DNA of 64,000 bases from NCBI GenBank assembly GCA_012690745.1, contig GCA_012690745.1_4086.2. The stretch is one strand, 5' to 3'. The first letter of the stretch is position 1. Every line of letters begins with the position of its first letter. The notes beneath the pieces are model-generated. The model was not told the DNA's origin and searched no databases. It saw only the letters and a list, made by a program, of their open reading frames with translations. Below are positions 28,458 to 48,755 of the stretch, piece after piece. Origin of the DNA: a phage. The position numbers and the translations under genes were made by a program.

Positions 28458-28458
28458 C

Positions 28459-31623: not shown

Positions 31624-31951
31624 TACATTTGATATTAATAAGTTAAGAGAATGGTTTTATAGTATTGAAATTGAAGCCATCCCGTATCATAGATATGAAC
31701 AATATAATTTAACCAGTATTGATATCAGTGAGTTGTACGCGTATTATCAAAGTGCATTAGAGATGCATAAGTTATTTTTGAGTACAGATTTTGTTCTAAA
31801 TTACAATTTTGAGGAATTTAAAAATTATAATTTAGTACAGAAATATGTAGTAGCAAAGTACATGTACCTTCAAGGAATTACAAGTAATTTGGAATTCAAT
31901 ACAGTCCTTGCTTTAGTTGAGGTAATTTTATGCAGTACATGTATGATTTAG
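31610..31951 (+). CDS. EYFQ-motif paralog family member (divergent)
   Basis: Variant motif SELYAYYQSALEM. Confidence 0.45.
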   Translation: MKLNNTFDINKLREWFYSIEIEAIPYHRYEQYNLTSIDISELYAYYQSALEMHKLFLSTDFVLNYNFEEFKNYNLVQKYVVAKYMYLQGITSNLEFNTVLALVEVILCSTCMI

Positions 31952-32436
31952 AGTTTAGTTTAGATGCTGCCTTTAAATTTGTTCACAAGATAGAAACAAT
32001 ATACAGTACATTATGTGCAATACAATCAGTATCATCTGAGTTTGATGTTGGTGAAAAATATCAGGTATGGAATAATACATTTCTAAACAAAGAACGTTGC
32101 TCTACGGGGTTTAATATTTTAACATTTAATCCCAGCAATTGTTACCCAGAGAAGCATGAACGTTATCCGAATGACGACATGTGGTTTGATTACACAAAAG
32201 ATGGTGATATGTCATCCCTTGTAGTTCCTGATGATTTTAATGCCGAAGATTTAACGGAAGAGTGGTGGTTTCAACAGAATTTAGTACACGATGATATTGA
32301 TTTATTTTTTTATGTAGTATTTAAAATGCTTTACCACAACAATATATTAAAAGATAGTGTGTTTTTTTCATGTCTATATATTGATGATTTGTACAATGAA
32401 ATCCAAATCAACATTCCCAGCACGCCTGTATCGTAA
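31930..32436 (+). CDS. EYFQ-motif paralog family member
   Basis: Motif TEEWWFQQNLVHD. Confidence 0.55.
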   Translation: MQYMYDLEFSLDAAFKFVHKIETIYSTLCAIQSVSSEFDVGEKYQVWNNTFLNKERCSTGFNILTFNPSNCYPEKHERYPNDDMWFDYTKDGDMSSLVVPDDFNAEDLTEEWWFQQNLVHDDIDLFFYVVFKMLYHNNILKDSVFFSCLYIDDLYNEIQINIPSTPVS

Positions 32437-32461
32437 GATATGGGCTTTTTTCGTTTTGGTA

Positions 32462-32490
32462 TTGACAAAGAAGTGCAAAGCTGTTATCAT
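32462..32490 (+). promoter_or_regulatory. sigma70-like promoter inside the array
   Basis: -35 TTGACA 32462-32467, 17-nt spacer, -10 TATCAT 32485-32490. Confidence 0.5.
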
Positions 32491-32518
32491 GTGTAATCAT
32501 TTTAAAGGAGAACATATA

Positions 32519-33031
32519 GTGAGTTTCATAATCCCAAGTACATACGAAGATGCATCAAGTGCAGTTCATAAGATTCATTATATTTTTAATTTAATTATTA
32601 GATCTGCAAAAATTAAAATGTATGCACCTCTTGTGGAATACGATAAAAATGAGGAAATTTTTGTTAGCACAGACCAAATTATTTTTCCATATTTCAATGA
32701 AGATAGATTGTGGTTCATGCATTTAGCTGCATTACAAAAATATAAAATGTCAATTCGTAATAATTTGGATATACCGTTATATCATCCTGATATTGGAGAG
32801 GATGAATATTTTCAGTACAGTACAGTACACCGCCATGAAGATATCTTTGTTGCTATGCTTATTGCTAAATTGAATACCGTTGATTTGGAGCAGTACAAAT
32901 ACAATAATAAATCATGTAAGATCATAATCCCTGCATTCATAGCTCTTTATGATTATGTGGTGCATAACAAAAAAGATGATACATATGCTTTCAATGAAGA
33001 GTATTTGAATTTTTTTAAGGAGAACATATGA
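32519..33031 (+). CDS. EYFQ-motif paralog family member
   Basis: Start moved to GTG 32519 (RBS AAGGAG 8 nt upstream); motif GEDEYFQYSTVH. Confidence 0.5.
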   Translation: MSFIIPSTYEDASSAVHKIHYIFNLIIRSAKIKMYAPLVEYDKNEEIFVSTDQIIFPYFNEDRLWFMHLAALQKYKMSIRNNLDIPLYHPDIGEDEYFQYSTVHRHEDIFVAMLIAKLNTVDLEQYKYNNKSCKIIIPAFIALYDYVVHNKKDDTYAFNEEYLNFFKENI

Positions 33032-33555
33032 GCAGTGAAGTGCTGAAATCAATGACATTCAATGAAATTGGTACATTTAAAGATAAGATCATTGATTGCA
33101 TTGAATACATGATTTGTAGTAATATCGAAAGTATCGAGATATTTAACAAGACAAATCGCTCTTACCATATGATGTACATTGCAAACAATAATGGTATCAT
33201 TCCATTTATTTCGGATAGTACAATATGGTACGCATGTGATACGAAAAAAACCACAATAGGTTTACATTCATTTGAGACACATTATGATCTAATTATTCCT
33301 GAACATTGTATGCAAGAAGAAGAATATTTTCAAATGCAATGTATACATTCACCATTAGTGTTGTTTAGTTTATATATTATACCTTATATCACCAAATGTG
33401 TTCATGAGAATAAAGCTCCGTGGAATCATGAATTTGTATCGTTGAAGTTATTGTATAATGTATTAGTAGAATATTATGATTACAGGCACAATGGTACAAT
33501 CAGTGATGTATGGGATTTTGAATCGCTAAGGGTGAAAACATACACAGGTGAATGA
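33028..33555 (+). CDS. EYFQ-motif paralog family member
   Basis: ATGA overlap; motif QEEEYFQMQCIH. Confidence 0.55.
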   Translation: MSSEVLKSMTFNEIGTFKDKIIDCIEYMICSNIESIEIFNKTNRSYHMMYIANNNGIIPFISDSTIWYACDTKKTTIGLHSFETHYDLIIPEHCMQEEEYFQMQCIHSPLVLFSLYIIPYITKCVHENKAPWNHEFVSLKLLYNVLVEYYDYRHNGTISDVWDFESLRVKTYTGE

Positions 33556-34171
33556 TATGACCAGAATTAAAATGTATGATTTGATGCTGTACAGTAAAAT
33601 TGCCATTCCAGTGCTTAATAAAGTGCTGGATGCATTCATTGCCAAATACCCTGAGAATTCAGTGTTATGTATTCCATTTAGTGTTCCAGATAAAGATGAT
33701 ATATTCCAAGTGAATGTCAGTACACGTGGTATTACATTGCAGCAGAAATATATGGATACGGAATATTATGGAATAAAGTTGGATTCAGTACAGGGTTCTA
33801 AATCAGCCTATGATTTTTTTGTTCCTAATAACATCGAGTCATGGGAAACAAACATTTCAAAGAAAGATGAAAATGATGTTCCTATTAGTGGTGTGTTCAA
33901 CAATAAAGTTTTTTATTATTACGAAACCGACAAATTCCCTGAAGAGTTATATTACAATTCAGAAATGAATGAAGATGTAGATGCATTCATGTTTCAATTA
34001 TCGTTAGTACATGATATCATTGATGTTCAAGAGTTAAGAGCAGAAATCAATTTAGCTAAAGAGTTATCGGACATGCTCCCACCGTTTAGTATGCTTTTTT
34101 GTGAAGGAGGTTATTTTTCAAAAGAAGTGTTTGAACATTTCGTAGATGTTGTAAAAGGGTTGGATATATAG
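33548..34171 (+). CDS. EYFQ-motif paralog family member
   Basis: Motif DAFMFQLSLVHD. Confidence 0.55.
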   Translation: MNDMTRIKMYDLMLYSKIAIPVLNKVLDAFIAKYPENSVLCIPFSVPDKDDIFQVNVSTRGITLQQKYMDTEYYGIKLDSVQGSKSAYDFFVPNNIESWETNISKKDENDVPISGVFNNKVFYYYETDKFPEELYYNSEMNEDVDAFMFQLSLVHDIIDVQELRAEINLAKELSDMLPPFSMLFCEGGYFSKEVFEHFVDVVKGLDI

Positions 34172-34172
34172 T

Positions 34173-34367
34173 ATGCTTATAATTGATATTAAACAAAAAT
34201 ACCGTAAGTTTGATTGGTTCACCGATAGTTTCCAGCTTGAATTATTACATATGAATATCAGTGAAACATTATGTGCAGAAACACAAGATGAATTTGATGA
34301 TAGAGTGATGAACATAGTAATGCTTTCTTGCTTTAAACATTTTGGTTATTTTTTCGGACAGTATTGA
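34173..34367 (+). CDS. hypothetical small protein
   Basis: Track ORF; no family motif. Confidence 0.4.
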   Translation: MLIIDIKQKYRKFDWFTDSFQLELLHMNISETLCAETQDEFDDRVMNIVMLSCFKHFGYFFGQY

Positions 34368-34375
34368 GGTAAAAA

Positions 34376-34891
34376 ATGCATCAACACAAGCATCATTCAT
34401 ATGATTTTGCAATTAACATTATGAAGTTTATTCGAGCGTTGGAGGATGGGAAGCTTAGTCATAAGTACAGGAAAGAGGGTAACAATTGGTTCAGAAATGA
34501 TTCCGAGTTCAGTTGTCATAAAATCGTGTATAGTAATCAGTACAGTGCCAATTACCTACAAGATGTAGTGATGTGTTTTGAATACGTGTTGCAGTTCAGG
34601 GGTTCAATCCAAGATGAGTTGATGGAGAACATGTACATCCGATACCTTCCAATGCTCAAAGATGAAAATGTATTATTAAATTCAATATACCAACGAGTTC
34701 GTGAAATTGAGTGCAGGGATATATTAGATACAGAAGAATCGTATTTCCAGCAATCCCTGATTTATTCACCTGATTTATTACAGGTACATAATTTGTTTAA
34801 TACATTACGTCAGAACATCAGTACAGACATATTTTTGTCATTATCGGATTATGATACATTTGTCAAAGATTTAGAGGAAATAGGTTTATGA
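34376..34891 (+). CDS. EYFQ-motif paralog family member
   Basis: Motif TEESYFQQSLIY. Confidence 0.55.
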   Translation: MHQHKHHSYDFAINIMKFIRALEDGKLSHKYRKEGNNWFRNDSEFSCHKIVYSNQYSANYLQDVVMCFEYVLQFRGSIQDELMENMYIRYLPMLKDENVLLNSIYQRVREIECRDILDTEESYFQQSLIYSPDLLQVHNLFNTLRQNISTDIFLSLSDYDTFVKDLEEIGL

Positions 34892-35232
34892 GTCGATTTT
34901 CGGTTTATATAGTAAACGTCAGTAAAGATGGTAGTTTAATTGAATTTGATGTAGTTGATAACAATGATAATTCATATGGTATTAAGGTACAGGACAATGA
35001 TGTACAGTTCAGTACAAGGACAAATTTTGAGAATCCAGTCCAAGTTCCGAATTTCATAGAAGATGAAGCTGCACGATTCCAATACGAAACGGCCTTTGAT
35101 AATGTACATATGCATATTATTATGCAACAAAGTTTAGTTCAATTAGTTCCTTTGTTCAGACAAAATATATATGTACATGAAGTGTCGATTAATGGCATTC
35201 AAAGTTCCGTATTGTTCGATACAAATATGTAA
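34888..35232 (+). CDS. EYFQ-motif paralog family member (divergent)
   Basis: ATGA overlap; motif DEAARFQYETAFD. Confidence 0.5.
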   Translation: MSRFSVYIVNVSKDGSLIEFDVVDNNDNSYGIKVQDNDVQFSTRTNFENPVQVPNFIEDEAARFQYETAFDNVHMHIIMQQSLVQLVPLFRQNIYVHEVSINGIQSSVLFDTNM

Positions 35233-35242
35233 GGAAAGTACA

Positions 35243-35794
35243 ATGAGTTCAATGAGTTTATTAGATACATTAGAAAAAGACAGAAGTGCAATTAAGCGTT
35301 TAAAAGAGCAAGTACAAAAGATTGTATACAACGTTGATAAGTTTGAGGTTCCCGGAAGATTTGGTGATATTTCCCATACGGAGATCAAATCCCTTAAGTC
35401 AGATTTGTTGATTAAAAATAAAAATGGGTTGATTTTAGTTTTGAGTTCAGATATGATGGGGGCAACACATAGTTATAATGCCGTATCGGTGCGTTCCGAG
35501 TGTGAAGGTATATATCTATCACAGGGTTTCAATAGCGAGACACAGGTTTGTTTTTGTGATGCAGTACATGACCCTATGAAGTTCACGAGAAGTGAAGCCC
35601 AAGCGTTATTAGAGCTATCAGACGAGAGTTTGTTTCAGTACAGTACAATGTATGACAATGATAAGCTTCGTTGTATGTACGCTGTAAAGCATTATACACA
35701 GGAGTTTTCTGGATTTGCATACCTTTTAGTTAGAACCAATACCAGATATATTGATATGTTAGAAGATTACATCGATAAAGTTGTTAATGTATGA
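35243..35794 (+). CDS. EYFQ-motif paralog family member
   Basis: Trimmed from track 35171 to ATG 35243 (RBS AAGGAAAG); motif DESLFQYSTMYD. Confidence 0.55.
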   Translation: MSSMSLLDTLEKDRSAIKRLKEQVQKIVYNVDKFEVPGRFGDISHTEIKSLKSDLLIKNKNGLILVLSSDMMGATHSYNAVSVRSECEGIYLSQGFNSETQVCFCDAVHDPMKFTRSEAQALLELSDESLFQYSTMYDNDKLRCMYAVKHYTQEFSGFAYLLVRTNTRYIDMLEDYIDKVVNV

Positions 35795-35814
35795 TTTTGT
35801 GATGGGATGGGATA

Positions 35815-35982
35815 ATGCTGATGAAAGAGTTATTTGAAGATCAGTTCAATACATATGTGGATAATATTCTTTATTCCAGCCGTGCTAGTCAACGAGGAAA
35901 TCGTGCTTACAATATAGATTACCTATTAGTGGTGCTGAGTTCACAGTACACCTACGCTGTACAGAGGACATATTATGAATAA
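35815..35982 (+). CDS. hypothetical small protein (55 aa; not in ORF track)
   Basis: ORF in gap; 3' end overlaps next start. Confidence 0.35.
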   Translation: MLMKELFEDQFNTYVDNILYSSRASQRGNRAYNIDYLLVVLSSQYTYAVQRTYYE

Positions 35983-36178
35983 TTTTAGAGATGTTGCTAA
36001 GGAGAAGTTCAAGTGCAGTTTAGATTTTGGGTTAAATGATTTTCTGACATGCACAATGTACAGGAATGATGATTATGAGCAATCCGTAATTTCGTTGCAC
36101 AGATATTTCGAAATAATTTACGCAAGATATCTTAGAAGGTTAGAGGGAATAGGGGATTGGAATTATGATTACGTTTGA
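35975..36178 (+). CDS. hypothetical small protein
   Basis: Track ORF. Confidence 0.4.
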   Translation: MNNFRDVAKEKFKCSLDFGLNDFLTCTMYRNDDYEQSVISLHRYFEIIYARYLRRLEGIGDWNYDYV

Positions 36179-36389
36179 AGAGCCGGAAGTGGCATATTGC
36201 TTTAGTGTGAAAGGTTTTGAATTCATGATGGATTCTATTTTGAAGGATACATATTTGGTTCAGATTGCAGTTGCAGATAATACAGATAATGCATTACAGC
36301 GAGTATTGAATATATACGAGAGGACGAGTCGAAGGCTTTGTGCAATGAAAAGGATTGAAGAAATCAAGGTTTCTAGGCTGAATAAATAG
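36165..36389 (+). CDS. hypothetical small protein
   Basis: Track ORF. Confidence 0.4.
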   Translation: MITFEEPEVAYCFSVKGFEFMMDSILKDTYLVQIAVADNTDNALQRVLNIYERTSRRLCAMKRIEEIKVSRLNK

Positions 36390-36585
36390 AGACGTTTCAT
36401 TTTGACAGGCCGCAGGGGGGTCAAAAAAATTTCCGCTGAAAAACATGCTAAGGTATATGTTTAATATAAAGTTTTATATTGTGTTTTTCAGAGTACAGTT
36501 CATGTTTCCTGAAACAAAAAATACCCCGCCGCCGAACGTTCTCCTTATATTGGAGTTTACCTTATTAATTATAGTAGAGATTAAG

Positions 36586-36963
36586 ATGGAAATAAAATAT
36601 AATGAATTTTGTGCAAGGACATGGATGTACACTGGTGAGTTAGTTACGCACTCTAACTTATACAAGGGTGATTTAAACTACGCTAGGGACAAGATTTTAA
36701 AGTACTGGAATGCTGACTTTTATTTGATGGATTTTAGTACTGGGTTTAGGGGTAAAGCAACCGAGATGTTGGACTATACAGTACTTGATGATGCTACACT
36801 GTTTCAGGCGGCATTAGTATTTGATAAGAAGTACATCTGTACATTAGAAGAGATGATTGAATTACAGCGTAGAATTAAATGTATTCACAGGGAATGTATA
36901 GATATCTGGTGCAGTACTGGTGAAGATGATTTTTGTAATCATTTCAATCTAGGGGAAGTGTGA
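36586..36963 (+). CDS. EYFQ-motif paralog family member
   Basis: Trimmed from track 36445 to ATG 36586 (RBS GAGA); motif DATLFQAALVFDKKYICTLEEM. Confidence 0.55.
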   Translation: MEIKYNEFCARTWMYTGELVTHSNLYKGDLNYARDKILKYWNADFYLMDFSTGFRGKATEMLDYTVLDDATLFQAALVFDKKYICTLEEMIELQRRIKCIHRECIDIWCSTGEDDFCNHFNLGEV

Positions 36964-37124
36964 TGGAATTTGATTTTTTAATATCAGTACATTCTTTTAA
37001 GCACAGTTATCAGTACTTTTGTAATTTAAACAAAGGTGATTTGATTATGGATACAGATACAGAGGCTGTATACAGTTCTAATATTCTGTACAAATTCAGT
37101 ACTAATCTGAAGGAGATTTTATGA
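36963..37124 (+). pseudogene. truncated N-terminal duplicate of the 37492 paralog (53 codons)
   Basis: MEFDFLISVHSFKHSYQYFCNLNKGDL is near-identical to N-terminus of 37492..37848 but ORF ends after 53 codons. Confidence 0.45.
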
Positions 37125-37492
37125 AAAAAGAAATTAGAATTCAATTCGGTATGAGGAAAAAAGAGGTCATCTGTACACTGAATCATGCGGTCGTGGAAAG
37201 CCTTGGTGGTGCATTACAAAAATTCTCCCATTTTGTTCTTGTACTATATGAAAATGGGTCTTTTAAAATCTTCACATATGATGATTCAAAAAATTACCGT
37301 AATGATTTTGTAAATCTGACAGTACTGTCAGAAGAGGAATTCTTTCAGGAAAGTACTGTCTGGAATTTACCAGGAGCACCAATTGAATACGTCCGTGCTA
37401 CACAGGCAGAAATGATCAAAGTAATGCAGAACTATCCAGAAGATTATATGACTAAGTTTCCTGAATCTATTTATGTAGAGGTTGAGTACTGA
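37121..37492 (+). CDS. EYFQ-motif paralog family member
   Basis: ATGA overlap; motif SEEEFFQESTVWN. Confidence 0.55.
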   Translation: MKKEIRIQFGMRKKEVICTLNHAVVESLGGALQKFSHFVLVLYENGSFKIFTYDDSKNYRNDFVNLTVLSEEEFFQESTVWNLPGAPIEYVRATQAEMIKVMQNYPEDYMTKFPESIYVEVEY

Positions 37493-37848
37493 TGGAATTT
37501 GATTTTTTAATATCAGTACATACTTTCAAGCACAGTTATCAGTACTTTTGTAATTTAAACAAAGGTGATTTAATGCACAGTGCAAATGAGTATATTCATT
37601 ACACTCAGGGTAAATTTACATTCATTGATTACAGTTCATTACAGTATCCACACCAAGATATGCCGGACTATACATTAATGGATACCGCAGAACTATTCCA
37701 AGAATCATTAGTATTTGATAAGAAGTACTTGTGTACATTTGAAGAAGTTATTGCAATACAAAATGAAATGAAAGAGTATGCTGCTTTGCATAAACCCAAT
37801 GCAAGTATTAATCAAGAATACAAATTCAATTTAGGAATTCAAGAATGA
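37492..37848 (+). CDS. EYFQ-motif paralog family member
   Basis: Motif TAELFQESLVFDKKYLCTFEE. Confidence 0.55.
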   Translation: MEFDFLISVHTFKHSYQYFCNLNKGDLMHSANEYIHYTQGKFTFIDYSSLQYPHQDMPDYTLMDTAELFQESLVFDKKYLCTFEEVIAIQNEMKEYAALHKPNASINQEYKFNLGIQE

Positions 37849-38204
37849 CATATGATTATTCTATGTACTATTATAAGTTACCTAAAGGATGGGACTTGTG
37901 CTGTAATCTTATTAAGGGCGACTCGGAACATGAGTTGAGTTTATATATGCATTACAAAGATTCTTGTTTTAAATTTATTCATGTATCACATGACGACTAT
38001 GACTATGAATCTGAGAGTCTTATAGATTATACAGTACTGGACGATGGTGAACTATTTCAGGCTGCATTAGTGTTTGATAAGAATAAGTACTCCTGTACAT
38101 TTGAAGAAATGGTTTCTTTGCAAAATGAAATGAAGAGATTTGAAAAAGAAAACGTATTTAATCCATCCCCATCAAGAACGAATAATTATTATTTCAATAT
38201 ATGA
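37845..38204 (+). CDS. EYFQ-motif paralog family member
   Basis: ATGA overlap; motif DGELFQAALVFDKNKYSCTFEE. Confidence 0.55.
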   Translation: MTYDYSMYYYKLPKGWDLCCNLIKGDSEHELSLYMHYKDSCFKFIHVSHDDYDYESESLIDYTVLDDGELFQAALVFDKNKYSCTFEEMVSLQNEMKRFEKENVFNPSPSRTNNYYFNI

Positions 38205-38213
38205 GATTATAAA

Positions 38214-38705
38214 ATGACATTACAGAGTTCATTGGAAAAAGCAAAGAAGATTCATGAGTACATGAATATGGCAAAAGAAGGTTCAGTTTACGGTGTTTTC
38301 AAAGACACAAGTACTCAATATTATGTACCGGATAACCTCCTTTATAATGACTGCTCAGATACAGAAACGTGCGTACTGGATACAGAAACGTGCATACTAG
38401 ATACCGACCCTAATGATTATGAATGCTTCATTAATATGCATAATGAGTACATGGTCTATATTAATGATACAGATACCATCAACAGTACTGACAGCGATTC
38501 CAATGACATTATAATTCCGAGTGAAGTACTGGAAGGTCCGTGGGATAGTGAAGAGTATTACTTCCAACAAAGTACTGTATATGATAATGAAGTACTTGAT
38601 GTTATTATAATTATGTGGTACTTTAAAAGTATTGGTTCTGGGAACTTCTATTTCGATTACAAATACGTAAAGAAAACTGTAGATAACGGTATTAACAGGG
38701 GTTGA
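38214..38705 (+). CDS. EYFQ-motif paralog, MSLQSAL subfamily
   Basis: Motif LEGPWDSEEYYFQQSTVYD. Confidence 0.6.
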   Translation: MTLQSSLEKAKKIHEYMNMAKEGSVYGVFKDTSTQYYVPDNLLYNDCSDTETCVLDTETCILDTDPNDYECFINMHNEYMVYINDTDTINSTDSDSNDIIIPSEVLEGPWDSEEYYFQQSTVYDNEVLDVIIIMWYFKSIGSGNFYFDYKYVKKTVDNGINRG

Positions 38706-38706
38706 A

Positions 38707-39177
38707 ATGAGTTTAGAAAGAGCATTAGAGATTGCGAAGTTAATTGATTTATGCAGCAAAGAAATTGTAGCAAATTGTCTTAATGGATATCTATTCAAGG
38801 AAGGTAAATCATATTGTCGAATGAGATACGATGACAGTAGTGAGTACATTCACATGTATGAAGAAAACTTAGATTCTTCTGAAACAACACTCAATGGGTG
38901 TGATGTTAATTTGGAAGATAATTACATGTACTTCTGTCGTGATGCTGATATTTTAATACAAGATTCTGACATTATATCTGGTGCAGCAGAGAAACATCTT
39001 CCGTATTCAGTACTGGATAATGACTGGGGAAGTGAAGAGTACTACTTCCAGCAGAATACTATCTACGAGGAAGATGTACTTGACAAGCTTGTCATTCTGT
39101 GGTACTTTAATAATACAGATTGTCCTAGCTTCTATTTGGACTTGGATCTACTACGAGTTATTAAAGAGGATATATGA
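38707..39177 (+). CDS. EYFQ-motif paralog, MSLQSAL subfamily
   Basis: Motif NDWGSEEYYFQQNTIYE. Confidence 0.6.
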   Translation: MSLERALEIAKLIDLCSKEIVANCLNGYLFKEGKSYCRMRYDDSSEYIHMYEENLDSSETTLNGCDVNLEDNYMYFCRDADILIQDSDIISGAAEKHLPYSVLDNDWGSEEYYFQQNTIYEEDVLDKLVILWYFNNTDCPSFYLDLDLLRVIKEDI

Positions 39178-39617
39178 GTTTAGCAAGTGCACTTGAACTA
39201 GCACACAGAATACATCACTTCCACGATAACATAAAAAGTGGGTTCTATGGTGATAAAGTAAGTGCATTTGGTGATGAGTATTATCTATCAGGTATAAAGA
39301 CATACTCTGATGATATTTTACTTATGGGACAGGATAAAGACAATACTATACAGTACTCTTCATGTAGTCAATATACTAATTTTTTTGTATATATTCCAGG
39401 TACTAAGATTACTTTTGACACAACAAATACACCTGTTGACTTCGGGGTACTTGATGGCCCGTGGGGTACTGAAGAGTATTACTTCCAACAGAGTCTCATT
39501 TTTAACCAAGAAATTCTTGATTCCTTGGTTGTGTTGTGGTACTTTAAGGAATTGAATTTTGAACCATTCTTTCTTGACTGGGGAGCATGTGAATATTTAA
39601 GTACAGGGGATTTGTAA
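39174..39617 (+). CDS. EYFQ-motif paralog, MSLQSAL subfamily
   Basis: ATGA overlap; motif DGPWGTEEYYFQQSLIFN. Confidence 0.6.
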   Translation: MSLASALELAHRIHHFHDNIKSGFYGDKVSAFGDEYYLSGIKTYSDDILLMGQDKDNTIQYSSCSQYTNFFVYIPGTKITFDTTNTPVDFGVLDGPWGTEEYYFQQSLIFNQEILDSLVVLWYFKELNFEPFFLDWGACEYLSTGDL

Positions 39618-40105
39618 TGTCATTACAAAGTGCATTGAAAGAAGCAAAGAAGATTCATGAGTACATGATTATGGTACAGGAAGGTTCAGTACCAGGTGTA
39701 TATAAAACATCTGATACTGAATTTTTTGTAAAAGACCGTGACGATTATGACGAGTCCGAGATATGTGCAGAAACATTAGTACTGCACACTGATACTGGTG
39801 ACAGTGATAACTGTGAATATCATATGTACAATCAGTACATTAGTTATTGCCGTAATGAAGATATTACCATCTACAACACAGATAGTGATGCTGATGACAC
39901 TATCATTCCTTATTCAGTACTGGAAGGACCGTGGGATAGTGAAGAATATTACTTCCAGAATAGTACGTTGTACAATGAAGAAGAATTAGATGTTATTGTA
40001 ATTATGTGGTATTTCAAAAGTATTGACTCCAGTAGTTTCTATTTTGATTATGAATATGTAGAGAATACTGTAGGAGAAGGTAATGTCATTACAAAGTGCT
40101 CTTGA
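39617..40105 (+). CDS. EYFQ-motif paralog, MSLQSAL subfamily
   Basis: Motif LEGPWDSEEYYFQNSTLYN. Confidence 0.6.
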   Translation: MSLQSALKEAKKIHEYMIMVQEGSVPGVYKTSDTEFFVKDRDDYDESEICAETLVLHTDTGDSDNCEYHMYNQYISYCRNEDITIYNTDSDADDTIIPYSVLEGPWDSEEYYFQNSTLYNEEELDVIVIMWYFKSIDSSSFYFDYEYVENTVGEGNVITKCS

Positions 40106-40535
40106 AAAAGCAAAAGAACTACATGGATACTTTGAAGATATAAAGGCAGGAAAGTTCAAAGAAGTGTACAAAGCCGAGAACGGCAACTACTACAAGGATG
40201 AAATGTATAATAACTCCGTTGGTGTAAGGGTTATTCTTGGGTTGAATTCCAATAGTCCTATATCGTTTTCTGAATACAATAGAGATGCAGAATTTATTAG
40301 TTATGTTGAAAATGGTAGCATTCGTTTTATTAATCGCAAAAAACCATTAATTTTGAATTATGAAGTACTGGAAGGTCCGTGGGATAGTGAAGAGTATTAC
40401 TTCCAAAACAGTACTGTTTACGATGATGAAGTACTTGAAGCATTAGTTATTATGTGGTACTTAAAGAGTGTTAACTGTCCTCGATTTTATTTGGATTTCG
40501 AAGAACTTCGTAAAGATCCAGAAGGTATAGAATGA
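40083..40535 (+). CDS. EYFQ-motif paralog, MSLQSAL subfamily
   Basis: Motif LEGPWDSEEYYFQNSTVYD. Confidence 0.6.
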   Translation: MSLQSALEKAKELHGYFEDIKAGKFKEVYKAENGNYYKDEMYNNSVGVRVILGLNSNSPISFSEYNRDAEFISYVENGSIRFINRKKPLILNYEVLEGPWDSEEYYFQNSTVYDDEVLEALVIMWYLKSVNCPRFYLDFEELRKDPEGIE

Positions 40536-40846
40536 AAAACTTATTCAGTGTTCAGTACGTCCCTGGTGAAATTAGTTTATTGTATCTGTTTGATCATGAT
40601 AATTCATTATTACTAGTAGTAAAGAAATGCCAAGCTAGTTCGTTTGTTGAATACATTCACGATAGTGAATATATACCTGATTTTTTAGAGTGTGATTATT
40701 ACGATGAACATGAATCATTTATTTTCCAGGAATCTCTCGTATGGGATAAATCGATCAACTTCTTTACGTTAATTGAATTACAAAAGCAGGTGAAGTATCA
40801 TTGGGATTATTTAATCACACAGGATTACATTGAGATAGAAATATAA
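40532..40846 (+). CDS. EYFQ-motif paralog family member
   Basis: ATGA overlap; motif HESFIFQESLVWD. Confidence 0.55.
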   Translation: MKNLFSVQYVPGEISLLYLFDHDNSLLLVVKKCQASSFVEYIHDSEYIPDFLECDYYDEHESFIFQESLVWDKSINFFTLIELQKQVKYHWDYLITQDYIEIEI

Positions 40847-41154
40847 TGACTAAAAATGAATTTGATTCACTTTGTACGGTTTATAATTCATTGACAGAAA
40901 TACCTGACTTTATTAATTACATTTCAGCTTTAAATCAAATTATGCATAGTTTTGAACAATCGTTTGAAGAGAAATATGCTGGTAGAAAAGTTCTATGTCA
41001 TATGTCAATGTACTTAGGAGATGGTGAGCCTTACACTACAAGTACTACATGTGAAATAAAAAAATATAATATATTATTGGGGACAATAGAATTCACAGTA
41101 TCCAATGGTGGTAGTTATATGTACTTTAGAGATGGAGTGGTTGAATTATTATGA
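40846..41154 (+). CDS. hypothetical protein
   Basis: Track ORF; no family motif. Confidence 0.45.
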   Translation: MTKNEFDSLCTVYNSLTEIPDFINYISALNQIMHSFEQSFEEKYAGRKVLCHMSMYLGDGEPYTTSTTCEIKKYNILLGTIEFTVSNGGSYMYFRDGVVELL

Positions 41155-41600
41155 GTTACGAAAGTGCAATCAAGAAAGCAAATGATATTCTACGCGTCGT
41201 TAAATTCTTCAAAGAAAATCCTGAATACTTAGCTGATGAAAACCATGATCACGATGAGAGATTGAGACGAAAAATTGTCGCTTTATTTGACACTAATGCG
41301 GATAATTATAGTCTAATTGAGTTAGCATACGATTATATTTCATTGAACCGAAACGGCAATATAGTTAATATAGAAAGACATGCAACTGAAGAATCTTTTA
41401 AAATTTCAGATATTTTATCCCTGAGTACTGAAGAAGGGTACTTCCAGGGTAGTACTGTTTATGAACAAGGAACACTTGACAATCTATGCACATTCAGTGT
41501 AATATATCAGAAATCTGTACTAGATGTATTTTATCTTGACACTGCTGAACTGGATACACTAACCAATTTTGTTACTACTGAAGAGGCTACATTCGAGTGA
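41151..41600 (+). CDS. EYFQ-motif paralog (MSYESAI N-terminus, related to MSLQSAL subfamily)
   Basis: ATGA overlap; motif TEEGYFQGSTVYE. Confidence 0.55.
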   Translation: MSYESAIKKANDILRVVKFFKENPEYLADENHDHDERLRRKIVALFDTNADNYSLIELAYDYISLNRNGNIVNIERHATEESFKISDILSLSTEEGYFQGSTVYEQGTLDNLCTFSVIYQKSVLDVFYLDTAELDTLTNFVTTEEATFE

Positions 41601-42133
41601 TGAAAGTTAACATCAATGACTTTGATGCATTACAAGATTTATCAAAAAAGATTCGCACCATTGTACCAGTACTCAAAAAATGCAGTACTGGTTTAATCGA
41701 TCCTAGTACTGTTGTTAATGAGAAGTACAATTTTCATTATGTATTACAGGGTACTGGGGCATTCCAGAAGTGTGAGGTGCGTGAGACACACGTAATTGAT
41801 ACATCATTGTTTTCTATTGGTGCACCTGTGTCGAATAATACTATTTTCCTAGACAACGCTGGAAATATTCAACAATTAACATTTAAGAAAAGGAAAAAGA
41901 ACAATAACATTGGTGTGTATGCGATGAAGTGGGGTCAACCTGATTTGAAGCGTGAAATTCACATCCCTAAGTACAATTACAATGCATTTGACGAACAGTG
42001 TTTTCAACTATCGTGTACTGACCCTGACTATGCTATCATTCAGTTCTATATGGAATTGCAGATAGCATTTAACAGTAATTTGTATATTAACTTATTGGCG
42101 ATTAACATTGATGAAGTATTCAAAAACATTTAA
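41597..42133 (+). CDS. EYFQ-motif paralog family member (divergent)
   Basis: ATGA overlap; motif DEQCFQLSCTDP. Confidence 0.5.
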   Translation: MMKVNINDFDALQDLSKKIRTIVPVLKKCSTGLIDPSTVVNEKYNFHYVLQGTGAFQKCEVRETHVIDTSLFSIGAPVSNNTIFLDNAGNIQQLTFKKRKKNNNIGVYAMKWGQPDLKREIHIPKYNYNAFDEQCFQLSCTDPDYAIIQFYMELQIAFNSNLYINLLAINIDEVFKNI

Positions 42134-42329
42134 TCGAATTGAATACATGAGAACTGTGAGTGCAGTGTGGGACATATGGTTCACTACTAAACCAAAAATG
42201 GATTACCATGACTTTAAGCTCTTGTTCTTCGTTGGCTCTAACAAACAGGATGTTGCAATGAAGGGTTATATTCAGCACTTACAGGAACTAATCCAGAAGA
42301 GAATATATGAAAATAATAGACCAAAATGA
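42108..42329 (+). CDS. small paralog family member interleaved in large array
   Basis: Motif FFVGSNKQDVAMKGYIQHL; start uncertain. Confidence 0.45.
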   Translation: MMKYSKTFNRIEYMRTVSAVWDIWFTTKPKMDYHDFKLLFFVGSNKQDVAMKGYIQHLQELIQKRIYENNRPK

Positions 42330-42498
42330 CATTGCTAAACTATTCAATATATATTCTACTAGAATGATGCAAACAGACTCATATAGTACTGAATTCAAAG
42401 AGTTGAAAGTCCTGATGTACTTGGGAACCCAATATCAGGAACAAGTTATTTTGGAATATATTAATTCGCTGAAGAAGGATATCCGTTATGTACGATGA
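42307..42498 (+). CDS. small paralog family member interleaved in large array
   Basis: Starts MKII; motif MYLGTQYQEQVI. Confidence 0.5.
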   Translation: MKIIDQNDIAKLFNIYSTRMMQTDSYSTEFKELKVLMYLGTQYQEQVILEYINSLKKDIRYVR

Positions 42499-43048
42499 TT
42501 TAGATATTGCGTTTGAACGTATGGTAATTTTAATGCAATGTGCAGAAATGCATGAAACAATCCGTCGCACCAAAGGGATTGAATATACAAGTAAACTATT
42601 CTCATACGAAAGTCGTCGAGGGATGGATCATTTTTACTGCACTGATTGTTCAAAGTTTTCAGTACTGAAATATTATCATCCTACTGTTTCCAATAATAGT
42701 TTAATATCCACATATGACGGTGATCTGTTTAGTGTAATGTATGACACATTACATCCATCAATTTCAATCTATAAAGATTGCGATAGTAGTTTATCGTATA
42801 TAATTGAAGATTACTTATCTCCTAATACTGAAGAGAATATTTTTCAGAACAGTGTGTTGCATGATGAATTAAGTATAAAATGCATCTATATGTTCAATAA
42901 GTTAAAAGAGTACGCCGATAATAATTACTTAATTGATAAGTTAGCAGTATTGTCTGTTTCCGTTTTTAATACAAATGACATTGATATGAAATACTATAAT
43001 GAGATTTGTAAAGTACATCATATGTATAAGGAACTATTATGTCAATAA
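42488..43048 (+). CDS. EYFQ-motif paralog family member
   Basis: Motif TEENIFQNSVLHD. Confidence 0.55.
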   Translation: MYDDLDIAFERMVILMQCAEMHETIRRTKGIEYTSKLFSYESRRGMDHFYCTDCSKFSVLKYYHPTVSNNSLISTYDGDLFSVMYDTLHPSISIYKDCDSSLSYIIEDYLSPNTEENIFQNSVLHDELSIKCIYMFNKLKEYADNNYLIDKLAVLSVSVFNTNDIDMKYYNEICKVHHMYKELLCQ

Positions 43049-43641
43049 ATGCAAATAAATGTTGTAGTGCAGATGTGCATTTGTTTTTTAAGAAATTAGC
43101 AAATGATATTATATATATGCAGGAAATGATTTATCACAAACGAGCGGATTTAGAAAAAGCATTAGTACAGTTCTCATTTATGCTTGATGGTGATATATTT
43201 CTAGAGAGTGATGCATTGCGAATAGTATTAGACAAAAATGCTAAAAGATTTTTATTTCATATAGATAATAAATTATGTTCCTCCGTATGTCGTACTTTTT
43301 ATAATCGTGATTCGGACTTATATCAATTCCTTTATTCTAAAGGTGCAGTAGAAGCATCATATGGTGATGGTTATGCCCTAGGAAAGAGTATTCCATTTAT
43401 GAAATCATTTAAAATAGAACACATCAGTACTGATGAAGATGCAATGTTCACAAATGATATAACTATGGGACGTGAAGATGCAATGCGATATATTACAAAT
43501 TCTATGCATACATTCTTTCAACGAACAGAATTTGATAATGTATATATATCAAATGTAAATATTTTCAATGACCTGTGTCAGTACTTGAGAAGTGTTTGTG
43601 ATTTTGATGAAAGCTATTGTAAGCTTTATACTGAGGTATAA
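43039..43641 (+). CDS. hypothetical protein (weak family resemblance)
   Basis: Track ORF; degenerate motif EDAMFTNDITMG. Confidence 0.45.
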   Translation: MSINANKCCSADVHLFFKKLANDIIYMQEMIYHKRADLEKALVQFSFMLDGDIFLESDALRIVLDKNAKRFLFHIDNKLCSSVCRTFYNRDSDLYQFLYSKGAVEASYGDGYALGKSIPFMKSFKIEHISTDEDAMFTNDITMGREDAMRYITNSMHTFFQRTEFDNVYISNVNIFNDLCQYLRSVCDFDESYCKLYTEV

Positions 43642-43646
43642 AACAA

Positions 43647-44009
43647 ATGAACACATTAAGTATTACATACTATACAACTAAAAAATTAGTTACTTGTTTA
43701 ATATCATTGAAGACAAACCATGATGATATGTTTGATATGGCTGCATATGAATTAGAATTATCAGAAGATGGCTTCAAGAGCTATGAAGTATATAGCTATG
43801 TTCGTGAAGATGTAATTGACACTACACTAATGCAAGAGGATGAGTTATTCCAAGAAAGTTTAGTATGGGATAATAAGTACGATTGTAACTTTGATTTCTT
43901 ATGTTTAATCCAGAAAGAAATGAAAAGAATCTTTGATAATTATCCAGTGAAGAGATTGAGTACTGGACCGGAGCAGTACAGGAGAATTTTATTCCGTTAT
44001 GAAGACTGA
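43647..44009 (+). CDS. EYFQ-motif paralog family member
   Basis: Motif QEDELFQESLVWD. Confidence 0.55.
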   Translation: MNTLSITYYTTKKLVTCLISLKTNHDDMFDMAAYELELSEDGFKSYEVYSYVREDVIDTTLMQEDELFQESLVWDNKYDCNFDFLCLIQKEMKRIFDNYPVKRLSTGPEQYRRILFRYED

Positions 44010-44334
44010 ATTAGTGAAAGTAATGTACGCTACTCATATTAAACTACTACTTGTGAAATTTGATTATAATAAAAAACATAATGATTTCTATACTTTAATT
44101 CGTGATGAAAATACATTCTCCTTGCGATGCAACAATATACCGTTGAAGATAAATGATTTTACTTCACTTGACGAGGGTGAATTATTTCAAGAATCATTAG
44201 TTTTTAATAGTAATATAAAAATTGATATAGAAGTTATTAAAAAATACCAGATTTTATTGAACAAAATTATGAATTGTTATCCATGTGAAATAGGAGGTCA
44301 TATGCAGTTCAAATCAAAAATGTATGAATTATGA
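43999..44334 (+). CDS. EYFQ-motif paralog family member
   Basis: Motif DEGELFQESLVFN. Confidence 0.55.
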   Translation: MKTELVKVMYATHIKLLLVKFDYNKKHNDFYTLIRDENTFSLRCNNIPLKINDFTSLDEGELFQESLVFNSNIKIDIEVIKKYQILLNKIMNCYPCEIGGHMQFKSKMYEL

Positions 44335-44878
44335 GGTTTATATGTTAGATGAAAAAATGAACAATGGAACACAATATAATCATCTTAAGTTGGATACATT
44401 CGAATCAGCTATCAGTACTGCACAAGATATAATTGATATTATCAAGTTCATTAAAGAAAATAAGTTCAAATGTTTGAAAATACTAAATCGTTCAATGTAC
44501 CGTGATAAAAATATTCATGTATCAGTACGTAGACCGAAAGATCAAGAAAGTGGGAGAGATTTCTATAACAACAGTGAGCAGTTCGAATGTGAATATGATC
44601 CAGAATTCAGAGGCGGTTTCATGTGTTACAGTATAAAGGATACCTCACACATTGAGATACGTTCATCGAAAGGTGGCATACGTACATTAGAGTTCATTGA
44701 TATAGTTTTAAATCAGGAATACTACTTTCAACTATCATTATTGTTTCCTGCATACGATTTAGGAGTTCTATTCATGTATAAGTACTTTCATGAGCACTGG
44801 AATGAAGACTTCTATCTGGACTTAGAAGATTACCAATTAGTTTGGAAAGAAATGGTAGAACTTCGCAATCCCTCTTGA
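44324..44878 (+). CDS. EYFQ-motif paralog family member
   Basis: Motif NQEYYFQLSLLF. Confidence 0.55.
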   Translation: MNYEVYMLDEKMNNGTQYNHLKLDTFESAISTAQDIIDIIKFIKENKFKCLKILNRSMYRDKNIHVSVRRPKDQESGRDFYNNSEQFECEYDPEFRGGFMCYSIKDTSHIEIRSSKGGIRTLEFIDIVLNQEYYFQLSLLFPAYDLGVLFMYKYFHEHWNEDFYLDLEDYQLVWKEMVELRNPS

Positions 44879-44904
44879 CACCCACCGATTCTTTGTGATA
44901 TAAT
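44875..44904 (+). promoter_or_regulatory. sigma70-like promoter inside the array (extended -10)
   Basis: -35 TTGACA 44875-44880, 18-nt spacer, TGaTATAAT with -10 at 44899-44904; hairpin cccttta...taaaggg follows. Confidence 0.6.
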
Positions 44905-44937
44905 CCCTTTATATTAATTGTAAAGGGTTATAACACA

Positions 44938-45414
44938 ATGTCCAACGAACTCACATTCACCAATGCACAAAAAATAGCAAAAGACATTATCAGGGTTTAT
45001 AAATTCCTTGCGAATGTTACTGAAGATTTTTTAATTGATAAAAATAAAGTTATTAAACGAAATGGATACCTTTCCTTTATGGATGGGTTACTCTATAGTT
45101 CAGATGAATCATCTTGTGGTATTAGAGTACTTGATACTGTACCAAACGGAGATTTTATTTCATACCATTTTCCAAGTTCAGATAATTTCAAATACTACAA
45201 TAGTATTCTCATAGGAGAATACTTTGATACGATTGTAATTAACAATGAAGAAGAGTTCTTCCAGTACAGTACTGTGTATCCAGAGAGGATTGTTTTCAGT
45301 TCAGTGATTTTAACAGCCCTTAAAAATGAACTAAATTCCGATAGTGATCATTTCTACTTGGACCTGAACAATGTCGATTGTATTATTGAGTACCTGGAGA
45401 AAAATGGTTTATGA
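44938..45414 (+). CDS. EYFQ-motif paralog family member
   Basis: Motif NEEEFFQYSTVYP. Confidence 0.55.
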   Translation: MSNELTFTNAQKIAKDIIRVYKFLANVTEDFLIDKNKVIKRNGYLSFMDGLLYSSDESSCGIRVLDTVPNGDFISYHFPSSDNFKYYNSILIGEYFDTIVINNEEEFFQYSTVYPERIVFSSVILTALKNELNSDSDHFYLDLNNVDCIIEYLEKNGL

Positions 45415-45896
45415 TTACTACAGAATATGATTACTATGGTGTTTTAGAATTTACAGAAAATATCTATCGCATTGCAAAGGAGTTCAGAAGTCCTAAGCCT
45501 TTTGGTGGAATGCCTTTTGGTGGTATGTTTCAATACGATGAGTTCAGTTCATCTAAAGGAAGACTAGCATTTACTAATGGTAGAGGTAATCAAATCTACG
45601 CGGAGTACTTTGATGATAATGACTTTCATTACAAAGCCGAATACATTTCATATTGCCCTGGGTCTGATTTGAAGATTAATATTGATACATTTAGAGAAGC
45701 AGTATTTGTTCCGTATAATGATTTAGTCTTCATGTCAGAGGAAATGTACTTTCAGGGTTCTTGTATTCATGATGTAAAAGTACTTAATGCTATGTTATTT
45801 TATGGTGCACTACTTAATCATTACAAATACAATCAACGATTCTTTTTAGATTTAGCAGTCTACTATAAATGCGTGGATTATTTGAATGCAAAATAA
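45411..45896 (+). CDS. EYFQ-motif paralog family member
   Basis: ATGA overlap; motif SEEMYFQGSCIHD. Confidence 0.55.
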   Translation: MITTEYDYYGVLEFTENIYRIAKEFRSPKPFGGMPFGGMFQYDEFSSSKGRLAFTNGRGNQIYAEYFDDNDFHYKAEYISYCPGSDLKINIDTFREAVFVPYNDLVFMSEEMYFQGSCIHDVKVLNAMLFYGALLNHYKYNQRFFLDLAVYYKCVDYLNAK

Positions 45897-46248
45897 GAAA
45901 ACAATTCAGTACATGACTGATGGTTCTGAATACTTTGTTTCAAGATATGTAATCAACTACAACCATTATGTAACCTATATTCCAGAGTACAATCAATTTT
46001 ATATTCAGATTTATCAAAATAATGGAAAGATAAATGATATATATTCAGAAATAAAAATCCCTGATTATAGTACTTTATCAGAAGAGGAATTGTTTCAGGA
46101 GAACACTATAAGTACTGAAGATGTGTACGAAATAATGGAATACCAAAAGGTACTTAAACATTTTCATGAAGCAAATGATATACAAATAGATATTGTTAAA
46201 CCGTGGTGTTACAATACATATGAGGTAAATTATGTTAGAAATGATTAA
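45886..46248 (+). CDS. EYFQ-motif paralog family member
   Basis: Motif SEEELFQENTIS. Confidence 0.55.
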   Translation: MQNKKTIQYMTDGSEYFVSRYVINYNHYVTYIPEYNQFYIQIYQNNGKINDIYSEIKIPDYSTLSEEELFQENTISTEDVYEIMEYQKVLKHFHEANDIQIDIVKPWCYNTYEVNYVRND

Positions 46249-46645
46249 AATTATGCAACGCTGTCTTGTTGATCAACACGGGGTATATGGATATCGTTTA
46301 AGTGCTCCTATTGACAAAAATAAAACAACCTATGTAAGCTATAATGCTGTACATGGATTTGATATATTCATTGATGCCAACAATAAAATCAAACAAGCTA
46401 AGGATGTGTCTATAATGACCCCTGATGAGTTATTCCAGTACAGCTTAGTTCTTCCTACATGTATCGATTTACAACGTCTAGGAGCGATACAGAAGGTTTT
46501 ACGCGAACATAAAGTACAACCCAATAAAGTCACACACATTCCAGAAACAATCTTCAAAACCATAGAAGTAGAAACTCCTGATTATATGTTAAGTGATGAT
46601 GAGTACTACGAAAAACACTTCCCTGGTAAAGTTTGGAGAGACTAA
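46232..46645 (+). CDS. EYFQ-motif paralog family member
   Basis: Motif TPDELFQYSLVLP. Confidence 0.55.
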   Translation: MLEMIKIMQRCLVDQHGVYGYRLSAPIDKNKTTYVSYNAVHGFDIFIDANNKIKQAKDVSIMTPDELFQYSLVLPTCIDLQRLGAIQKVLREHKVQPNKVTHIPETIFKTIEVETPDYMLSDDEYYEKHFPGKVWRD

Positions 46646-47136
46646 TGAACCGAAAGTACAGAGAAACTATGAAGTTCGCTAAGGAGTGTTTAGAAGTGTT
46701 TGAGTTCATCAATGCTCATAAAGATTTATTCCATAGATACATTGCAATCAGTGAGACAGATGACCATAGGTACATATGTTCTCGAATTCAAGATAAGATA
46801 TATAAGATTGTGTTCTCGGAAACATACACAGATACATCTAATTCACTATATGATTTTGCACGTACTGATTACGTTTCATACAAATCTTGGTCTGATAGTA
46901 TTAAAATTGTGCACAAGCAAAATACATTTTATTCTTTTCTTACGGACATTTCCGAAGAAAGTTACTTTCAAAACAGTTTAATTTATACAGAAAAAGAACT
47001 CAAAATGTTATTCATAATGTCGTACTTTAAAAAGTACTGCAAATTTAATACATTATCTTTTGAGATTTCTGCAATGAAAGTATTCATTAAAAATGTAAAA
47101 GAATTAAAGAGGGCTTTTAATGTACATAGAAAATGA
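46633..47136 (+). CDS. EYFQ-motif paralog family member
   Basis: Motif SEESYFQNSLIYT. Confidence 0.55.
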   Translation: MERLMNRKYRETMKFAKECLEVFEFINAHKDLFHRYIAISETDDHRYICSRIQDKIYKIVFSETYTDTSNSLYDFARTDYVSYKSWSDSIKIVHKQNTFYSFLTDISEESYFQNSLIYTEKELKMLFIMSYFKKYCKFNTLSFEISAMKVFIKNVKELKRAFNVHRK

Positions 47137-47662
47137 GAATGTAAAATGCATTACTGACATTTGTATAAAATTAATGAAAATTTTCATTAACCCAAAATAC
47201 AAGACTCGTTCTTTACGTCATAATATTGATGAGCATTGTACCATTAATATACTAGGTAGTATTCTTGATGTAAAATATGATGGTAAAATGTTATTCGGTA
47301 TAAGAGAAGAGAAGATAGATGATGCATTCTTTTCTTCTAAAGATAAATTTGAACCTTCTGATTATAAAGTGATTATTCGTGATGATAGCATCTATATTAG
47401 TAGTGATTATTCAAATTACTTCGATAAAATATACACTGAAAACGTTGACTACCATTATGAAATGATTGATTTACCAGTAACAGACATTGATATGGAGAGA
47501 ATCAAATTTTCATTATCAGATAATGAGTACTTAGGTATACAAACATATTATTCACTACAAGGAAAGATTCCACCTGCTATGTATATAAGGATTGAGATTG
47601 GTAATGTATTCAATGATAAGGTTATATCAATTGCTGATAAAATATTGGGGGTTGAATTATGA
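47120..47662 (+). CDS. hypothetical protein (array member, motif not evident)
   Basis: Track ORF; contiguous with array. Confidence 0.45.
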   Translation: MYIENENVKCITDICIKLMKIFINPKYKTRSLRHNIDEHCTINILGSILDVKYDGKMLFGIREEKIDDAFFSSKDKFEPSDYKVIIRDDSIYISSDYSNYFDKIYTENVDYHYEMIDLPVTDIDMERIKFSLSDNEYLGIQTYYSLQGKIPPAMYIRIEIGNVFNDKVISIADKILGVEL

Positions 47663-48733: not shown

Positions 48734-48755
48734 AGACCCTTATGGGTCTTTTTGT
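48734..48755 (+). terminator. rho-independent terminator
   Basis: Stem agaccc / gggtct, loop ttat, T tract. Confidence 0.7.

Follow-up and report, generated by a model that had tools for sequence, protein, structure and literature searches.

An old Asteriusvirus-specific branch of a large jumbo-phage paralogue family with a conserved helix motif and a relaxed beta region

Introduction

Tandem arrays of paralogous genes have been reported from the jumbo phages 121Q and phage G (Hua et al. 2017) and phAPEC6 (Wagemans et al. 2020), and in RaK2 "nearly 10% of gene products are paralogues" (Simoliunas et al. 2013; PMC3622015). These published arrays belong to the same lineage and reflect the same phenomenon as the genes described here, namely small, functionally unassigned genes duplicated in tandem, and are mentioned in passing, in one or two sentences. 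The present analysis concerns six open reading frames (ORFs), named below by their start positions, which lie between 38214 and 41600 of a 64,000-nucleotide stretch of phage DNA (hereafter the window; assembly GCA_012690745.1, contig GCA_012690745.1_4086.2). An initial annotation had read them as a recently amplified set of diversifying binding proteins. The six genes are real and ordinary in kind, a lineage-specific expanded family of jumbo phages; their shape had been described well and was misread as recent and diversifying. The searchable literature yielded no earlier account of the family's motif, extent, fold, selective regime or class of expression.

Results

Homology of the six genes and source of the DNA

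All six ORFs were located on the + strand at the expected positions, and their homology was confirmed by a hidden Markov model (HMM) of the window (E 1e-25 to 1e-32) and by PHROG matches (E 1e-55 to 1e-66 for 38214-40083). The six proteins could be aligned from end to end. The near-tandem arrangement held for six homologues, with two further ORFs, one of the family and one not, sitting between 40083 and 41151. The shared N-terminus was looser than the proposed consensus: 38214 begins with MTLQSSLEKAKKIHEY, 38707 with MSLERALEIAKLIDLC and 39174 with MSLASALELAHRIHHF. The C-terminal block and its EEYYFQ motif were present, and the 54 nt around the motif were 70-91% identical in all six genes. 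Conserved ends and a divergent middle were likewise recovered among the five close copies, with mean pairwise amino acid identities of 46% (residues 1-22), 23% (23-94) and 50% (95-150).

Region 36000-44500 was 98.9% identical to Escherichia phage BF17, whose record is shifted by only about 29 nt relative to the window. Altogether 36 records matched, all of them 121Q/PBECO4-like jumbo coliphages or near Salmonella relatives; those whose taxonomy line is complete are assigned to Asteriusvirus. The array genes were annotated as "hypothetical protein" in every deposited genome inspected.

Age and turnover of the copies

Pairwise amino acid identity among the six copies was 22-58%, the closest pair being 38214/39617 (58%). 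Whole-gene synonymous divergence (dS) between paralogues was 0.95 for one pair; the remaining 14 pairs all exceeded 1, up to saturation. Each copy had orthologues of 69-100% identity in 121Q, EC.P1, UE-S1, ph0011, WPEC3 and A4, with exceptions: no orthologue of 38214 was found in ph0011 or WPEC3, and none of 40083 or 41151 was detected in A4. Orthologues within the 121Q clade were mostly 84-100% identical, with 40083 and 41151 dropping to 69-74% in ph0011, EC.P1 and WPEC3; for 38707, identity was 84-100% within that clade and 57.5% in Turkey5. In a neighbour-joining tree every copy grouped with its own orthologues on long internal branches. Since dS was saturated and the orthologue clades extended across Asteriusvirus genomes, the duplications are old, and the youngest pair, 38214/39617, predates the divergence of phage A4. 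The description of the genes as recently amplified did not survive these results.

The five close copies all mapped to three RaK2 genes, ORF417, ORF419 and ORF420 (about 30-50% identity, partial alignments), and formed a clade that excluded them, showing that this branch expanded within the Asteriusvirus lineage, long ago. A true 38214 orthologue was found in 26 of the 36 Asteriusvirus records and was absent from 10; an unrelated 61-aa ORF occupies its position in ph0011 and WPEC3.

The first 22 codons of 38214 (38214-38279) and 39617 (39617-39682) were 86% identical at the nucleotide level with a dS of 0.23, whereas dS over the rest of the two genes was above 1. The A4 orthologue of 38214 (locus L006, 4001-4480) starts with a 39617-type N-terminus, MSLESALKEAKKIHEY. 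The 5' ends of 38214 and 39617 may have undergone gene conversion, although the sites are too few to carry weight.

Selection on the middle segment and origin of the insert

The ratio of nonsynonymous to synonymous divergence (dN/dS) was estimated by pooled Nei-Gojobori counts over orthologues, with sliding windows of 20 codons. It was 0.18-0.46 for whole genes. By segment, the N-terminal helix gave 0.11-0.44, the middle 0.20-0.64 and the C-terminal block 0.16-0.34, the middle exceeding the C-terminal block by a factor of 1.1-2.9. The positive selection suggested for the central segment was thus not seen, with dN/dS below 1 in all six genes. Sliding windows came close to 1 (about 0.95) in a single place, a loop at residues 71-100 of 38707; values above 1 were confined to two windows of 38214, whose dS of 0.02-0.04 made the ratios unreliable. 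As estimated from the aligned orthologues, the regime is one of purifying selection with constraint relaxed in the middle, and not of positive selection.

The Cys/Asp/Thr-rich insert noted in 38214, DTETCVLDTETCILDTD, is real and lies at about 38358-38408. The inserted sequence DTETCVLDTETCIL is a tandem duplication of polymorphic copy number; A4 and UE-S1 have just one copy. In the predicted structure of 38214 the first heptapeptide copy fell in a loop (residues 50-54) with a predicted local distance difference test score (pLDDT) below 50, and the second formed strand 58-63. Judging from its repeat structure, the insert is a slippage duplication.

Signs of a diversity-generating retroelement (DGR) were also sought. 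No template/variable repeat pair was found in 37800-41800, where the only direct repeats were the 21-bp duplication and coding segments shared between paralogues (60-91% identity). No ORF in the window was large enough for a reverse transcriptase (the longest has 295 aa), and ten ORFs queried gave no significant Pfam match. A C-type-lectin or immunoglobulin (Ig)-like fold of the DGR type was not encountered. The claim of a diversifying binder was therefore not supported, given the age of the duplications, a middle dN/dS of 0.20-0.64, a predicted beta region in place of a loop, an insert made by tandem duplication and the lack of DGR signs.

A superfamily of about 40 genes defined by one motif

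Starting from the six ORFs, an iterative HMM converged on 40 ORFs between 27743 and 56093. BLASTP alone split these into several groups, and E-E-x-[YF]-F-Q-x-S-x-[VIL] was common to all 40. In its fuller form the superfamily motif, carried by all six ORFs, reads [ST]-E-E-x-[YFH]-F-Q-x-S-[TL]-[IVL]-[YH], with beta strands before it and an amphipathic helix after it. Across 93 long-type homologues its residues were conserved at 100% (F), 98% (Q), 94% (second E), 91% (S) and 82% (first E). A profile-profile comparison of long- and short-type members gave 88.5% probability (E 2.7e-6) and covered the last strands and the motif.

Outside the window, an HMM built from window members only retrieved 26 ORFs with the same motif from a syntenic 40-kb stretch of RaK2, and a broader HMM retrieved 22. 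Among 1.84 billion representatives, a profile search returned only 92 clusters, all of 39-202 aa and with no added domains; the distant members come from metagenomic contigs, several of them from one and the same contig. A word-indexed search of 5.8 billion proteins returned 34 matches; all named ones were "hypothetical protein", and these derived from 121Q-like phages or from phage contigs of about 350 kb filed under E. coli. With one copy as query, tBLASTN reached 36 Asteriusvirus-type records only; a distant metagenomic member as query also reached RaK2 and K64-1. The searches showed a family restricted to jumbo phages of the Rak2-like group and to uncultured relatives of these.

Within PHROGs v4, phrog_9317 (the five close copies) and phrog_12674 (41151) were matched over nearly the whole profile, and both are of unknown function. 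The end-to-end matches mean that PHROGs already contains these proteins, in clusters drawn from published genomes of Rak2-like phages. The two families cross-hit each other and have short-type relatives in phrog_15629 and phrog_13866. ORF 45411 matched phrog_12674 with E 1e-63, and that family groups 41151 with 45411-45896.

From about 47 kb on, the window (47120-63113) was largely collinear with RaK2 (locus L011, 22111-37869) by reciprocal best hits. The collinear stretch includes family members and downstream genes annotated in RaK2 as dam methylase and cytidyltransferase. Upstream family members mapped many-to-few onto RaK2, so that a stable and a fast-turnover part of the array adjoin.

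Predicted structure and searches for known families

AlphaFold2 models were obtained for 39617 (10-sequence alignment; model m781330dee154), with pLDDT 85.1 and a predicted template-modelling score (pTM) of 0.81, and for 38214 (32 sequences), with pLDDT 85.8, pTM 0.82 and the same topology. The predicted chain consists of helix 3-21, six or seven strands at about 28-97, short helices 99-103 and 109-115, helix 121-135, strand 141-144 and helix 145-154. The motif corresponds to the short helix 109-115 (pLDDT 94-95). Low confidence was restricted to one or two loops; the middle, which had been expected to model as a variable loop, was instead a six- or seven-stranded beta region with block-mean pLDDT of about 78-90 outside those loops. 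The models show what are predicted to be soluble, mostly acidic single-domain proteins with an N-terminal helix, a beta region and a C-terminal helical block. All six proteins had isoelectric points (pI) of 4.05-4.68, net charges of -10 to -26 in 147-163 aa and a negative grand average of hydropathy. The net charge of the middle segment varied from -16 to +2 among paralogues (+2 in 40083), and several superfamily members had a pI of 6 to 9.

A search of solved structures with the models gave no match, and matches in BFVD were only to uncharacterised proteins of phages 121Q, SP27, GAP32, RaK2, Serratia phage BF and Yersinia fHe-Yen9. Nothing exceeded threshold in Pfam (ten proteins queried) or NCBIfam, and no PADLOC-DB family matched at E <= 1 among eight proteins tested. 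Sub-threshold matches to DUF6051 (E 0.046), DNA_Packaging_2 (E 0.32) and LuxQ (E 0.085) were treated as chance, and the lone match of a profile search against PDB sequences (E 0.71) was rejected. A match of 44324-44878 to the "peptidase" family phrog_15439 (E 0.003) was dropped as not significant, because ten proteins had been tested against 38,880 families. Two deposited annotations were unsupported by these findings: "amidohydrolase 3" for phAPEC6 gp447c (locus 587-964), which equals the 3' part of ORF 36445-36963, and "DNA ligase" for A4_348, upstream of the array.

Two resemblances of the motif are, we presume, coincidental. EEGYFQGS in 41151 and EEMYFQGS in 45411-45896 fit the cleavage consensus of the tobacco etch virus (TEV) NIa protease, E-x-x-Y-x-Q-G/S; the P1' residue in other copies is Q, N, L, Y or E. 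The motif also loosely resembles the clamp-binding sequence Q-x-S-L-x-F, a likeness that we likewise take to be chance.

Expression context and absence from the virion

Promoters were scanned as TTGACA-N16-18-TATAAT with at least 5/6 matches in the -10 element, against mononucleotide shuffles as background. Near-consensus sigma-70 promoters numbered 28 on the + strand and 4 on the - strand, compared with about 0.8 expected; most were intergenic and lay 30-57 nt upstream of a start codon. The sites at 1338-20375, 28459, 32462 and 44875 were unevenly spread, with about one per gene in the first 20 kb and very few in the paralogue arrays. The strong site at 32462-32490, the nearest upstream of the cluster, is the probable start of the transcript covering the six genes, and no other near-consensus + strand promoter was found between it and 44875; a weaker site (10/12) occurs at 36402-36430. 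Adjacent genes overlap or directly adjoin one another, ATGA and TAATG being the junctions seen. Neither strand of the window contains the T4-type late-promoter octamer TATAAATA, compared with 14 +/- 3 occurrences in shuffles, suggesting that it is a functional signal in the phage that has been purged from this region. From these sequence signals we infer early transcription by the host sigma-70 RNA polymerase in long polycistronic messages.

The virion proteome of phAPEC6 (62 proteins) contains nothing between gp347 and gp549 (PMC7247149). In phAPEC6 the six genes have gp435c and gp438c-gp442c as their orthologues, inside this undetected range. As they were not found in the virion, the six proteins would not be receptor binders.

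Neighbouring genes and layout of the window

The coordinates of the features are collected in Table 1. All ORFs of at least 90 aa were on the + strand, save a few reverse-strand ORFs nested within + strand ORFs, and no tRNA genes were found in the window. Within the cluster, the start of 39174 overlaps the stop of 38707 (ATGA), and 40083 overlaps the end of 39617 by 23 nt. The array-interrupting ORF 40846-41154 has a reciprocal best hit in RaK2 (locus 2553-2834, annotated ORF368). At its position a 444-nt ORF is found in ph0011 (locus L003, 4770-5213), EC.P1 (L004, 3848-4291) and WPEC3 (L005, 2643-3086), compared with 309 nt here, a variation in gene content within the array.

A separate second tandem family of 29 BLASTP-linked ORFs (63-104 aa, typically about 70 aa) occupies 21745-29508, with a stray copy at 42307-42498. 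A published remark on paralogue arrays in this lineage may refer to this second family instead. It lies directly upstream of the E-E-x-F-Q-x-S array with slight interleaving, and has weak relatives in the syntenic RaK2 region. Several ORFs of the first 21 kb (starts 2690, 8079, 18064, 18941 and 20789) carry MFYIE[RS]G at or near the N-terminus, and small two-member families also occur (16723/17002, 3495/16003 and 8675/15589). ORF 32357-33031 (224 aa, GTG start) spans both the terminator-like hairpin 32424-32445 and the strong promoter 32462-32490. With these signals falling inside the ORF, its listed start is doubtful and likely a longest-ORF artefact; the true start of the gene probably lies on the downstream side of the promoter.

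Table 1. Positions of the six paralogues, the superfamily array and associated sequence features in the window.
Feature	Coordinates	Strand	Description
Superfamily array	27743..56093	+	about 40 ORFs, 104-224 aa, common E-E-x-F-Q-x-S motif; the six genes form one branch
Paralogue 1	38214..38705	+	163 aa; pI 4.05; phrog_9317 E 6.5e-64; AlphaFold2 pLDDT 85.8
Paralogue 2	38707..39177	+	156 aa; pI 4.10; phrog_9317 E 5.5e-59
Paralogue 3	39174..39617	+	147 aa; pI 4.25; phrog_9317 E 2.3e-55
Paralogue 4	39617..40105	+	162 aa; pI 4.05; net charge -26; phrog_9317 E 8.9e-66
Paralogue 5	40083..40535	+	150 aa; pI 4.68; phrog_9317 E 1.9e-59
Short-type superfamily member	40532..40846	+	104 aa; motif ESFIFQESLVWD; window HMM E 1.5e-11
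Array-interrupting ORF	40846..41154	+	102 aa; not detected as family member (missed by iterative HMM)
Paralogue 6, more distant	41151..41600	+	149 aa; 22-32% identity; phrog_12674 E 1.5e-53
Motif DNA (39617)	39937..39990	+	S-E-E-Y-Y-F-Q-N-S-T-L-Y; direct-repeat family D4
Equivalent motif segments	38546-38599, 39030-39083, 39467-39520, 40385-40438, 41426-41479	+	family D4, six copies at 70-100% identity, gene-length spacing
21-bp tandem duplication	38357..38404	+	2.3 copies, encodes DTETCVL/DTETCIL; Tandem Repeats Finder (TRF) score 82, 88% matches
Strong sigma-70-type promoter	32462..32490	+	TTGACA-17-TATCAT with TG; directly after terminator-like hairpin 32424-32445
Perfect extended sigma-70 promoter	44875..44904	+	TTGACA-18-TG-TATAAT; first real intergenic gap downstream of cluster

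Discussion

With moderate confidence, we regard the six genes as an old, Asteriusvirus-specific branch of a large paralogue family that evolves by birth and death and supplies early, non-virion accessory effectors of host takeover or counter-defence. A role within such an effector repertoire is the most likely function as judged from genomic context and by analogy. The family arose by old tandem duplications followed by long retention under purifying selection; constraint is relaxed in the beta region and in loops, copies are lost now and then, and slippage adds small indels. Its genes would be transcribed early, and the products would act inside the infected cell and not in the virion. The conserved helix-motif core may provide a common scaffold or a shared interaction or active site, and the diverged beta-sheet surface would then give each paralogue a different target. 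The invariant polar residues of the motif argue for a shared functional site of this kind, as far as conservation can suggest one.

Several points weigh against this interpretation. Equally, the motif could serve to nucleate folding, as a helix N-capped by Ser/Thr and acidic in its first turn. The backing for an effector or adaptor role consists of context and analogy, and no annotated homologue names a function. The comparison that joins long- and short-type members spans just 49 columns, and the membership of the most distant window ORFs depends on an iterative HMM, which is prone to drift. One virion proteome leaves room for low-copy packaged proteins. The early class is read from consensus motifs, and the searchable literature offered no transcriptome of an Asteriusvirus.

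Other explanations account for parts of the same evidence. Were the proteins diversifying binders, a conserved scaffold would carry a hypervariable middle under positive selection that tracks changing ligands. The middle is indeed the least conserved part among paralogues (23% as against 46-50% at the ends), and its dN/dS is 1.1-2.9 times that of the C-terminal block, with the 38707 loop 71-100 at about 0.95. However, segment dN/dS was always below 1 (0.20-0.64), and orthologues in the 121Q clade were mostly 84-100% identical. The supposed hypervariable segment is a confidently predicted beta region with a slippage duplication as its insert, neither a template/variable repeat nor a reverse transcriptase-sized ORF was found, and the proteins were not found in the virion; we consider such binders very unlikely. 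Selection speaks also to the idea that the copies are largely functionless duplicated DNA filling an enlarged capsid, in line with the ratchet idea of Hua et al. (2017), and have no specific role. Single copies are dispensable, 38214 being missing in 10 of the 36 records. Nevertheless, every tested copy was an intact ORF with dN/dS of 0.18-0.46, orthologues have persisted since before the A4 split and partly since the RaK2 split, and the motif is kept in 93 diverged homologues, which makes this explanation very unlikely too.

The chemistry of the proteins bears on two further possibilities. Small enzymes, in which the invariant E-E...Q...S forms a catalytic or metal site and the variable beta sheet selects substrates such as host macromolecules or signalling nucleotides, would fit the conservation of four polar residues at 82-98% in homologues otherwise 20-30% identical, a pattern more site-like than that of a hydrophobic core. 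We nevertheless think enzymes unlikely: all of the polar residues fall within one short helix and are not brought together from different parts of the fold, a genome with about 40 catalytic paralogues would be unusual, and no enzyme family was matched in Pfam, NCBIfam or PDB sequences, nor was any structural match obtained. The low pI (4.05-4.68), the net charge of -10 to -26 and the apparently early region would suit DNA-mimic decoys of the Ocr/ArdA/Arn kind, which block restriction enzymes or other DNA-binding defence proteins. Acidity is uneven, however, with a middle segment of +2 in 40083 and several superfamily members at pI 6 to 9; the invariant motif is aromatic and polar and not a carboxylate array; and there was no match in Pfam, the Ocr and ArdA families included, in PDB sequences or among structures. 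DNA mimicry is, in our judgement, highly doubtful.

An old, retained family of putative early effectors is thus the interpretation that we carry forward. What now defines the family is its motif, how far it extends in the window and in RaK2, the selection acting on it, its probable early expression with products outside the virion, and a predicted fold that matches no solved structure. A considerable fraction of the genes of Rak2/121Q-group jumbo phages appears to belong to this single uncharacterised family.

Among known systems, the targets of DGRs and other hypervariable phage binders are alike only superficially, in a conserved frame with a more variable segment. Unlike DGR targets, the genes described here are accompanied by no reverse transcriptase-sized ORF and no template/variable repeat; they have no C-type-lectin or Ig fold, their dN/dS is below 1 and their products were not found in the virion. 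The proteins themselves are already present in PHROGs, which splits the superfamily into many families and records no function, motif, fold, link between them or count of about 40 copies. A more instructive comparison comes from eukaryotic viruses. The multigene families MGF110, MGF360 and MGF505 of African swine fever virus (ASFV) and the ankyrin and Bcl-2-like families of poxviruses modulate host range and immunity. It is conceivable, though rather unlikely in this specific form, that the present family is the phage counterpart of such immune-evasion families, with the E-E-x-Y-F-Q-x-S helix docking a common host or phage hub or acting as a catalytic or processing site and each beta-sheet face capturing a different host defence or housekeeping target; if so, the array would help to set host range. 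The eukaryotic-virus families share with the phage array dozens of tandem paralogues, gain and loss at the strain level, non-structural products and individually dispensable copies. They have no sequence or structural relation to it, and the host here is bacterial, so that the likeness would be one of probable mode of action and not of membership.

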